Shown here one piece after another: positions 54,292-56,645 of a DNA stretch of 64,000 nt. The position numbers and the translations under genes were made by a program. The first letter of the stretch is position 1. Every line of letters begins with the position of its first letter. The notes under the pieces were generated by a model. It made no database searches, was not told the DNA's origin, and saw only the letters and a program-made list of their open reading frames with translations. This DNA comes from Nannocystales bacterium (GTDB lineage Bacteria > Myxococcota_A > Polyangia > Nannocystales > Nannocystaceae), in assembly GCA_050633305.1 (NCBI GenBank), contig JBOEGF010000007.1, forward strand, positions 192,001 through 256,000, given 5' to 3'.

Positions 54292-54729
54292 TCAAAGCCC
54301 GGCGAGTTCGCGCAGCGAAGCCGCGAGCGCGGCCACCCGGGTCACGCTACGAGGGATGACGAGCACGGTGTCGTCGCCCGCCAACGTGCCCAGGATGTCG
54401 GGGTGTCGCATGGAGTCGAGGTCGAAACCGACAGCCTGCGCTCGGCCGATCCGGGTTCGCAGCAGGAGCATGGACTCGTTGTGCATCACGTCCTGCACCA
54501 TGTCTGCATCGAATGCAGCCGTTGTCTCGGCCAGCAGGTGGTACGCGAACTCCCCGTCGGCGCGTTGCCGGCGTTGAGCGCTGAGGGACTTGAGGTCGCG
54601 ACTTATCGTGCTCTGTGTCGCGTCAAAACCCCTTCCGCCCAGCAGGTCGCAGAGCTCCTGCTGGGTCCCGGTTTGACCGCTGAGCAGCAGCTGTTTGAGC
54701 GCAAGCCGGCGTGCCTTCGCGCCCTTCAT
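54292..54729 (-). CDS. argR: Arginine repressor
   Basis: TQQEL, ATQSTISRDL, GTLAGDDT. Confidence 0.93.
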   Translation of the reverse strand: MKGAKARRLALKQLLLSGQTGTQQELCDLLGGRGFDATQSTISRDLKSLSAQRRQRADGEFAYHLLAETTAAFDADMVQDVMHNESMLLLRTRIGRAQAVGFDLDSMRHPDILGTLAGDDTVLVIPRSVTRVAALAASLRELAGL

Positions 54730-56645
54730 GCCAACGCCTGCCGGGTGATGAGCGTGCCGATCCCTTCGTCGGTGAACAGCTCGCCGACGACGGCATGGGG
54801 AATCCGGCCGTCGATGGCGTGAAAGGCCGAAATCCCGCGCTTGGCTGCGTGTCGGGCCAGGACCAGGAGTTCCGCGTCGGTCGCATCGAACCGACCGCGT
54901 TCGAGACCCGTGAGGAACGTGTCCGGAGAGAGTCGTTGGACAAGCCCATGTTTGTCGCGCAGTCCTCCATCTGCGGCGAGCACGATGAGCTTTTGGATGC
55001 CGAGCTTCAGGGCGAGGTCGACCGTTGCGTCGGGCGCGGGCTCGGTCTGGGAGAGCAAACACAGGTGGCCGCGGTCCAGCAGGTTGCTGATGTTCACCGC
55101 ATCGGTCGCGACACTCGCCGCGAATCGTCCTGCCTGCCGCATGTGTTCGGCGATGGACTCGACGGCAGCCGCCGAGGGGAGCAAGGCCACCGGCTTGAGG
55201 CCCGCATCGAGGCACAGCTCCAGGTCGTGTGCCAGCGTCGCGATGGGGGCATCGAGTTTCTCGAGGTTGGGAAGCACCACCATCACCCGCATCCCGGTGA
55301 ACCGCCGAACGTAGGACAGGCCTTCGCACAGCAGCTGATGCTTGAGCCGGGGCGAGTACGCCGCGAGGGAGAGGTTGCGCGAGACGGCGCCGCTGCGACT
55401 GACCTCGATCTGCTTGGACTCGTCGGCGTTGATGCGCACGTAGTCGTAGCTGAGGTCGCAGCCGTACGCGGTGGAGGAGGCAGTCCCTCCCATGCCGACG
55501 TCGATGCTCCAATGGACTTCGGTTTGTTGAAGTCCGGCGCGAAGGGAGGCGCTGTTGTGCCCGAGCTTGGGTCCGGAGCGGTCGTAGAGCAGGGTGCCTT
55601 GTGCGTGAATCGTGAGCGCGCCGGGGTCCAGCTGCAGCCCGTGGTCTGCCGCGACTTGACCGATCGCCATGCTCACGCGGCCCCACTCGGGCTGACCTGC
55701 AAATGCGCTGCACTTGACCAGGCTGCTGCGACACACGCCCCGCGCGAGGTCCCGGGCGATGGACTCGGTGGGTGCGCCGGTGACCTCGACTTCGATGAGG
55801 CGCGTCGCGCCTTCACCATCGCGGGCCACTTGCTTGGCGAGCGAGCGCAAGACCCCATCCAGGGCCTCGGCGAACACGGCCTCGGCGGCGTCCCCCTCGA
55901 CATGGAGCCCGGAGGCACCGTTGGCCAGCGCCAGCACCATGTCGTTGGTCGAGGAGTCGCCGTCGACGGTGATCGCGTTGAAGGTTCGGTCGACGGCGGG
56001 GGCGAGCATGGCCTGCAGCCTGGCCGGGGCGATGGCCGCGTCGGTCAACAAGAATCCGAACGTCGTGGCCATGTTCGGGTGGATCATGCCCGAGCCCTTG
56101 GCGACCCCGAGTACGCGCACGGGCGCGTGCTGGCCTGGCAGCTCGATGGTGGTGTGGGCCACCTTGGTGCAGGTGTCCGTGGTGAGAATCGCCTTGGCGA
56201 ACTCTCGGGGGTCGTCGGCAAGCTTGCTCTCGAACTCGCTGGCGGCCTCCTCGATGAGTTCGACCGGGAGTGGCACCCCGATGATCCCGGTCGATCCGGT
56301 CAGAACCGTATCAACCTCGAGTCCCAGCGCGGTGGCGGCTGCGGTGGCCATGCGGAGGTTGTCTTCAACGCCGGTGGGTCCGGTCATCGCGTTGGCGTTG
56401 CCGCTGTTGATCAGCACGGCTCGCATTCCGTCGGCCGGCAGTGCGGCGGCATTTCGTTCAACACAGGCGGCGCGGACCCGGTTCTGCGTGAAACAGCCGG
56501 CGACGACCGCGGGTCGATCGGAGACCAGCAGCGCGAGGTCGGGCCGGGCGTGCTTGATCCCACAGCGCGTCCCGGCGAAGCGGAACCCTGCGATGGGGAA
56601 CGAGGGCGCCAGGTCGGTGTGGATGGTGAGGTCGGTGGTGCTCAT
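54726..56645 (-). CDS. argJ: Ornithine acetyltransferase ArgJ fused to a degenerate acetylglutamate-kinase-like domain
   Basis: [51 protein letters not shown].IN; about 200-aa AAK-like tail. Confidence 0.9.
   Translation of the reverse strand: [639 protein letters not shown]

Follow-up and report, generated by a model that had tools for sequence, protein, structure and literature searches.

Why would an ornithine acetyltransferase (ArgJ) carry at its C-terminus a domain that resembles an acetylglutamate kinase (NAGK) stripped of its catalytic motifs? The question is raised by a gene in the window, the 64,000-nucleotide stretch of a Nannocystales contig analyzed here. Its minus-strand frame, running from 56645 to 54726, is a single stop-free open reading frame of 639 residues. 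This agrees with the initial sequence-only reading of the DNA, in which a complete ArgJ with an autocleavage Thr continued in frame into a tail of about 200 residues; we delimit the tail at 208. The locus order is argC-argJ/tail-argR, with 4-base overlaps at both junctions:

54292..54729, minus strand: argR, arginine repressor, overlapping the fusion stop.
54726..56645, minus strand: argJ-(pseudo)argB fusion gene, 639 aa, defined by the open frame and profile matches.
56642..57589, minus strand: argC, overlapping the fusion start; the sole copy found in the genome.
57614..57673, minus strand: candidate promoter TTGCGA-N17-TAGAAC (57642-57614) and, upstream of it, a CATGCGCAT box (57673-57665), both picked by eye.

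The argC product scores slightly under the TIGR01850 cut-off (226.9 against 233.6 bits). A regular-expression scan for ARG boxes gave no useful match. Of 7 genomes of the genus, 5 have the exact CATGCGCAT box, which is possibly an ArgR site. Homologs of the fusion protein bear Nannocystaceae source names. Genes of this type are annotated as plain ArgJ or as 'acetylglutamate kinase', and the latter label is wrong for the decayed fusion forms. We rejected frameshift or read-through as an artefactual cause of the fusion, since the frame runs unbroken in 43 of the 44 family genomes with both parts, the exception being G015, and several other genomes are cut by contig ends. The protein divides as follows:

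55422..56645, minus strand: ArgJ (ornithine acetyltransferase) domain, residues 1-408, over the cut-offs of PF01960, NF003802 and TIGR00120 and matched by OAT structures in the PDB.
56066-56064, minus strand: autocleavage and catalytic Thr194, in its motif within the ArgJ domain.
55353..55421, minus strand: linker, 23 aa, residues 409-431; conserved, beginning with Glu where other ArgJs have Tyr.
54726..55352, minus strand: pseudo-NAGK tail, 208 aa, residues 432-639; AAK fold that has lost its catalytic motifs, the substrate lid and several hairpins.

Residues 17-408 constitute a complete ArgJ by profile (PF01960 422.5 bits, cut-off 32; NF003802 423.2, cut-off 351; TIGR00120 373.3, cut-off 298). 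Thr194 lies in the autocleavage motif and is unvaried across 113 aligned proteins, and a chain break at this residue agrees with the alpha and beta chains of 1vra and 3it4. The end of the domain is unusual. Unfused ArgJs mostly finish YRS, YRT or YTT, 3-4 residues beyond the INAD motif. This Tyr-x-Ser/Thr ending just past the last helix is absent from the fusion, which reads INAD-ESK and continues for 228 further residues. The residue after INAD is Glu in 103, Asp in 16 and Lys in 2 of the 121 family proteins, and Tyr in 54/54 other fusions; the Ser/Thr two places further on is unconserved in the query's family. According to the available part of PMC13725253, the C-terminal residues of ArgJ are mobile and protrude into the active site. 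Because the family has replaced the Tyr of this ending, the C-terminal segment may act differently here, or the enzyme may be altered, and the replacement counts against a feedback reading in cis.

The tail aligns with P. aeruginosa NAGK (2buf; E 2.2e-12) in two matching stretches, one being the N-helix, the other the C-lobe. An AlphaFold2 model of residues 409-639, built from a 26-row alignment, reaches pLDDT 78, and its best matches are arginine-sensitive NAGKs (Foldseek E 1e-8). Superposition gives Z 17.3 with 2buf (rmsd 3.2, 198 aligned) and 16.9 with both T. maritima 2bty and S. elongatus 2jj4, other AAK enzymes trailing by only about 1-2 Z. The comparison with the P. aeruginosa and T. 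maritima kinases proposed at the outset thus places the tail beside them. It has no match to Pfam AA_kinase (PF00696) or TIGR00761, and its best NCBIfam match is the ArgA family (E 1.7e-11).

Catalytic features are missing throughout, as had been noticed from the motifs. VLPN (457-460) stands at the K-Y-G-G position and LPSA (489-492) at the HGGG position. Scored against intact kinases, the tail retains 0 of 13 catalytic or substrate positions, and 15 scored family members retain 0-2. Apart from the six residues named below, the scored positions are G43, G44, R66, N158, N160, D181 and M214, which we take to be catalytic or substrate-contacting. In an alignment to intact fused kinases, K8, G11, G45, D162, G213 and K217 (E. 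coli numbers) are replaced by V, N, A, a gap, T and L; these six are catalytic NAGK residues according to the accessible part of PMC3329491. The beta3-beta4 substrate lid, the subsequent hairpins and the acetylglutamate-binding NINAD segment are deleted. The tail is almost certainly a dead kinase.

The arginine site has fared differently from the catalytic one. Its elements are:

55299..55352, minus strand: N-helix of the arginine-sensitive NAGK type, residues 432-449, by alignment; Tyr445 and Phe449 in 121/121 family proteins.
54990..54992, minus strand: Lys552, by two-step alignment to Lys201 of N. gonorrhoeae NAGS.
54753..54812, minus strand: arginine-binding signature D612-G-R-x-P-H...E622-L-F-T-D-E-G-I-G-T631, by alignment.

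Both signatures of arginine-inhibited NAGKs named in the sequence-only reading are present. The N-helix stretch quoted there lies at 438-451 and the C-terminal one at 609-633, and a helix is predicted at 432-445 in the tail model. Y445, F449, K552, H617, E622, L623, F624, T625, G628 and G630 occur in 121/121 family proteins (the query plus 120 listed of 126 homologs found), a count that is partly circular because the homolog set was found with the tail. Through a related ArgA, and allowing for an inferred 20-residue tag offset, K552 and E622 correspond in alignment to the N. gonorrhoeae NAGS (2r8v) residues K201, a Lys on the central sheet, and E270, both named as arginine ligands (PMC4490483). 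Mutating the equivalent residues abolishes the arginine response of the Xanthomonas and mouse enzymes, as described in the available part of PMC2566978. The tail very probably binds arginine.

The sequence-only reading took the tail for an independently recruited pseudo-kinase. Our data point instead to the fusion of a still intact kinase with ArgJ. We scanned named genomes with one intact fusion and found 20 of 80 loci fused, all titled myxobacteria or deltaproteobacteria, including Archangium violaceum; the remaining loci, mostly Bacillota with adjacent genes, are unfused. A further 49 ArgJ loci came from other families of the class, mostly picked for long open frames and therefore a non-random sample. 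In a quick LG+G4 tree of the ArgJ domain only, calculated with no bootstrap, 62 fused rows fall on one side of a branch with SH-aLRT 99. Searched with the family-tail profile, fused kinases reach 77-109 bits, compared with 42-71 for most free NAGKs and 49 for an ArgA; three free kinases from f10 reach 86-88 bits and may be split-off descendants. Because the fused ArgJs group together, many of their kinases are intact and the profile favours fused kinases, we regard the tail as a decayed fused kinase. Descent from ArgA, suggested by the NCBIfam match, was rejected on the profile scores and the shared linker, and descent from the genome's standalone ArgB on the lack of detectable similarity (best E 2.6). 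Two distant proteins with short-linker ArgJ-ArgB fusions (P0248, P0251) look independent.

Decay of the fused kinase was not confined to this family. We scored 54 complete fusions outside it, picked through ArgJ or an intact fusion, after dropping three contig-end-cut rows and two duplicates. Of these, 19 lack one or more of five core residues; some are borderline cases and others have large deletions. The smallest decayed extension (L083, 185 residues) has lost most of the N-lobe and kept the arginine site. Ten arginine-site positions are kept in 54/54, including all 19 decayed fusions, when Lys or Arg is counted at one position and Thr or Ser at two, a less circular count than that over the 121 proteins. 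The equivalents of K8, R66, N158 and K217 are kept in 39, 38, 32 and 39 of the 54. On the ArgJ-domain tree the intact or decayed state changes 13 times. In AU tests a single clade is rejected, whether all 26 decayed rows are placed in it (p 2e-56) or just the 11 from outside the family (p 4e-4), and with it a single loss of catalysis. Most genomes with an intact fusion also have a separate argB, so redundancy preceded decay.

The connection between the two halves is conserved in length. A 37-residue span, 409-445 (window 55421-55311), runs from the INAD end of ArgJ to the N-helix Tyr, and the INA(D/E)-to-Tyr spacing is 37 in 118 of the 121 family proteins and in 40/40 fusions from families other than f1 and f10. 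The f10 linker is Gly/Pro/Ala-rich, of low complexity and 28-66 residues long, and the kinase is intact in 14/14; since f10 is one clade, this loosening counts as one event. Among representatives at 50% identity, which partly overlap the earlier fusion sets, the pattern found a spacing of 37 in 12, of 38 in 1 and, in one independent fusion, of 24, with no match in the others; one representative has His for the N-helix Tyr and another Phe for the signature Leu. Arginine shifts the N-helix in N. gonorrhoeae NAGS (PMC4490483) and, in the accessible part of PMC3329491, in yeast NAGK, and linker lengthening in P. aeruginosa NAGS abolishes arginine inhibition (PMC4490483). As the 37-residue spacing starts at ArgJ's end motif, the helix moved by arginine would be tied at constant distance to the lid of the ArgJ active site. 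Structure prediction adds little to this geometry. In a full-length single-chain model (pTM 0.67) residues 400-447 have pLDDT <50 and the domain orientation is unfixed; the model therefore shows no fixed geometry, which counts against feedback in cis. A complex prediction with two ArgJ domains (18-409) and the tail (428-639) scored 0.00 in two runs with its controls unfolded and is evidence neither way.

These features lead us to lean towards a reading in which arginine binds the tail and the tail controls, by inhibition, the ArgJ in cis. After self-cleavage at Thr194 the tail would remain on the beta chain, and tails would pair via their N-helices. Arginine binding would shift the N-helix and, by a pull through the fixed-length linker, disorder or displace the C-terminal segment that helps to form ArgJ's active site, slowing acetylglutamate formation. 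The sensor would have been kept and catalysis lost once the fused kinase had become redundant to a second ArgB, itself predicted to be arginine-insensitive. The direction of the effect is our inference, since arginine activates some NAGS enzymes (available part of PMC2566978). A point against this reading is that the tail-less ArgJ of C. glutamicum is unaffected by arginine, and control of ArgJ by ornithine is described, in the accessible part of PMC3827942.

A fixed linker would suit a structural scaffold equally well, which counts against feedback in cis. As a scaffold the tail would oligomerise or stabilise ArgJ, or aid its self-cleavage, and arginine would merely stabilise the assembly with no feedback on rate. 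In NAGS, AAK domains do nucleate oligomers and reduce the Km for glutamate (PMC4490483). In the tail, the N-helix and the beta5, helix C and helix D elements appear to be kept in the model and alignment, and the family-invariant D564, G567, R585, F586 and R635, outside the arginine site, suggest an interface. However, every decayed tail keeps the ligand-contacting Lys, Glu and Gly-x-Gly-Thr, even the 185-residue form, and unfused ArgJs function without a scaffold. We therefore consider a purely structural role unlikely, although it is the strongest competitor to arginine feedback in cis.

The arginine pathway of the genome (11 Mb, 92% complete) bears on where else arginine could act. It contains one ArgJ, one argC, ornithine carbamoyltransferase, argG and argH, with ArgD candidates below cut-off. 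In a profile search of the genome, ArgA and ArgE matches were far below their cut-offs and NAGS/K gave none, so the genome yielded no other known site of arginine feedback. Two PII genes are present. A working kinase, expected elsewhere from the sequence-only reading, is encoded by a single-copy standalone argB on another contig, which passes TIGR00761 and has KFGG, HGGG, NINAD and GGMIPK. This ArgB starts directly before its first strand, without the N-helix, and is without the arginine signature; both features are absent from the standalone ArgB in 33/33 family loci examined. Since the standalone enzyme has the same family fold, the N-helix and signature residues are unnecessary for folding. 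A separate argB-family match (E 1e-15) occurs in 70 of 72 family genomes, and a separate argB in 11/11 decayed-tail genomes checked outside the family, its signature being absent in 9 and present in 2. These two (L132, L133) combine decayed tails with a free, signature-bearing kinase, and a description of the tail as the only feedback point is for this reason not general.

The near-constant presence of a separate ArgB would also fit sensing in trans, the tail binding that enzyme (or ArgC, or PII, given the two PII genes) in a metabolon like the yeast NAGS/NAGK one treated in the available part of PMC3329491, and transmitting inhibition to it. Against this, the standalone ArgB offers no N-helix for interlacing and does not detectably resemble the tail, family genomes with neither ArgJ nor tail still carry it, and the fixed distance to the ArgJ end is left unexplained. 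We judge a role in trans to be quite improbable.

Pairwise dN/dS, obtained by simple counting from non-independent pairs with dS near saturation, is 0.04-0.24 for the tail and 0.07-0.48 for ArgJ, the tail being lower in 7/7 pairs. The tail is under purifying selection, and with an invariant arginine site it is conserved and not decaying, as the sequence-only reading required. The extension past ArgJ measures 228-233 residues in 119 of the 121 family proteins. Among 72 family genomes, the tail is found in 45, ArgJ in 45 and both in 44; of the two with one part only, one is 54% complete and the other has its ArgJ cut by a contig end. An NAGS/K-type kinase occurs in 0 of the 46 family genomes with ArgJ or tail versus 14 of the 26 without. 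Two observations in this material count against feedback in cis: G015 has two frameshifts in the tail, and three ArgJ-like representatives scoring near the fusions (P0134, P0144, P0147) end about 10-20 residues past the motif and are tail-less.

Conservation in the tail is unevenly spread. The C-lobe keeps a G-L-R-D-x-x-G segment (561-567), which we assume lies near the nucleotide site of AAK enzymes and which could mark a domain that still acts as an enzyme or binds nucleotides, its substrate having changed. Yet neither catalytic lysine survives, the catalytic aspartate and the glycine loops are lost too, and the columns now at these positions rank with the most variable in the family, making a new activity very improbable. 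Least probable of all is that the tail is a disappearing vestige, retained solely because the ArgJ stop codon is gone and argR is translationally coupled to its end: the many deletion forms, the frameshifted genome and the few tail-less relatives would fit, but the selection data largely refute it, and the near-constant extension length and invariant arginine site also speak against it.

For feedback in cis a wider history can be proposed, to which we give an even chance. Myxobacteria would have evolved a second, unrelated arginine-inhibited acetylglutamate-forming enzyme, in which an ArgJ-ArgB fusion acquired the 37-residue coupling between the helix of the kinase's arginine site and ArgJ's active-site lid, letting one site brake both steps. 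The kinase would then have died repeatedly with the sensor retained, so that a living series survives that runs from bifunctional enzyme to minimal sensor domain. The natural intermediates exist: fusions that are intact and bifunctional, others decayed by point changes, deletion forms and the 185-residue minimal form. Change from kinase to regulatory domain is thought to have occurred for ArgA; because the family holds these intermediates, it can be tested stepwise in existing proteins.

At listing level, a literature search found no ArgJ-ArgB fusion or arginine-regulated ArgJ, although a 2007 review by Xu, Labedan and Glansdorff, an NAGK arginine-sensitivity mutagenesis study or subscription papers might mention the fusion. 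The accessible portions of PMC3827942, PMC13637947, PMC3182869 and the GapMind preprint leave it unmentioned. In the available parts of the literature, arginine feedback sits at ArgA or ArgB and ArgJ is described as ornithine-inhibited. An arginine-gated ArgJ, if true, would be a third control point, its ArgA-type sensor domain being attached to an unrelated fold and at the opposite end.

Classical ArgA, as in N. gonorrhoeae NAGS (2r8v/3d2p) and P. aeruginosa NAGS, likewise links an acetylglutamate-making domain to a non-catalytic AAK domain, and shares with the tail the N-helix, the Lys and the E-L-F-T-x-x-G-x-G-T arginine site. In contrast, its partner domain is a GNAT, whereas here it is a self-cleaving Ntn-type ArgJ. 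The AAK domain is C-terminal here, so that the link runs via the N-helix and not the last strand; the tail is also about 80 residues shorter and descends from a fused NAGK. The fusion protein has no GNAT domain and scores 39.1 bits with TIGR01890 against a cut-off of 202.85.

Hexameric arginine-inhibited NAGKs (2buf, 2bty, 2jj4) have the same fold, N-helix and C-terminal arginine signature, but the tail differs in being fused to ArgJ and in having lost the equivalents of K8, G11, G45, D162, G213 and K217, the lid and NINAD. The ArgJ/OAT enzymes of B. halodurans (1vra), M. tuberculosis (3it4) and S. clavuligerus (OAT2, 1vz6) share the full domain and autocleavage Thr motif; the fusion, unlike them, has no free C-terminus past the last helix, a replaced terminal Tyr-x-Ser/Thr and 231 extra residues. 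NAGS/K of Xanthomonas and Maricaulis and the yeast NAGK/NAGS system also unite kinase and acetyl transfer in a single chain or complex that has one arginine site, and one of the two activities is lost in related proteins. The NAGS/K partner, however, is a GNAT and not ArgJ, and within the family this enzyme occurs only in genomes without the ArgJ fusion. The fusion would work like ArgA yet is neither ArgA nor an active NAGK, and its tail, which is real and conserved, would be a variation on a known regulatory design.

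In relatives of the window's genome, the separate, intact argB that lacks the N-helix and arginine signature is usually preceded by a second argC, giving an argC-argB pair apart from the arginine operon (loci L167:2585-3655, L171, L137 and L140). A possible M20 peptidase gene, recognized from its translation only, sometimes lies close to this pair. In the window's own genome (L043), the standalone argB occupies the equivalent position, ahead of a CBS-domain gene. Unlike in the relatives' loci, the second argC is absent from this site.

Free kinases also occur in f10, the related family whose ArgJ-ArgB fusions have a loose linker. 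When scored with a profile of the family tails, the free kinases of L087, L156 and L166 are similar to fused kinases. The free argB of L087 directly follows argC, and two of these three genomes carry an unrelated, unfused ArgJ elsewhere. The free kinases may derive from secondary splitting of the fusion once its linker had loosened. Among the scored f10 fusions, the arginine-site Lys is replaced by Arg in five of seven (L095, L099, L100, L107 and L109).

Two further ArgJ-ArgB fusions with short linkers and apparently intact kinases (P0248 and P0251) look independent of the myxobacterial family. In P0185, a 164-residue tail fused to ArgJ still contains the arginine signature. The tail of genome G015 (L030 / L041) is interrupted by two mutually compensating frameshifts, reflecting either an assembly error or real decay.

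The arginine operon in the window is flanked by the following features.

49040-54276, forward strand: polysaccharide export-like cluster with Wzc-, flippase- and O-antigen-polymerase-like ORFs (named by translation reading only), convergent with argR
57758-57833, forward strand: tRNA-Gly(GCC), divergent from the operon
57789-62482, forward strand: three tandem DsbA-like thioredoxin-fold ORFs (CPPC, CPYC and CPFC motifs), then a TlpA-like ORF (WCEPC), likewise named

The sequence proximal to the tRNA gene is similar across the genus.

Elsewhere in the window's own genome, an Mpl/MurC-like ligase encoded on contig C9 carries a fused GNAT domain (L051:64-1941). ArsN2 is the best match of this domain, and short NAGS families match it weakly; the fusion protein could be a priming source of acetylglutamate. 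One member of the family that lacks ArgJ has carbamoyltransferase, argG, NAGS/K and argH-like genes grouped in a cluster resembling that of Xanthomonas (L168:1-6984); all but NAGS/K were named from their translations.
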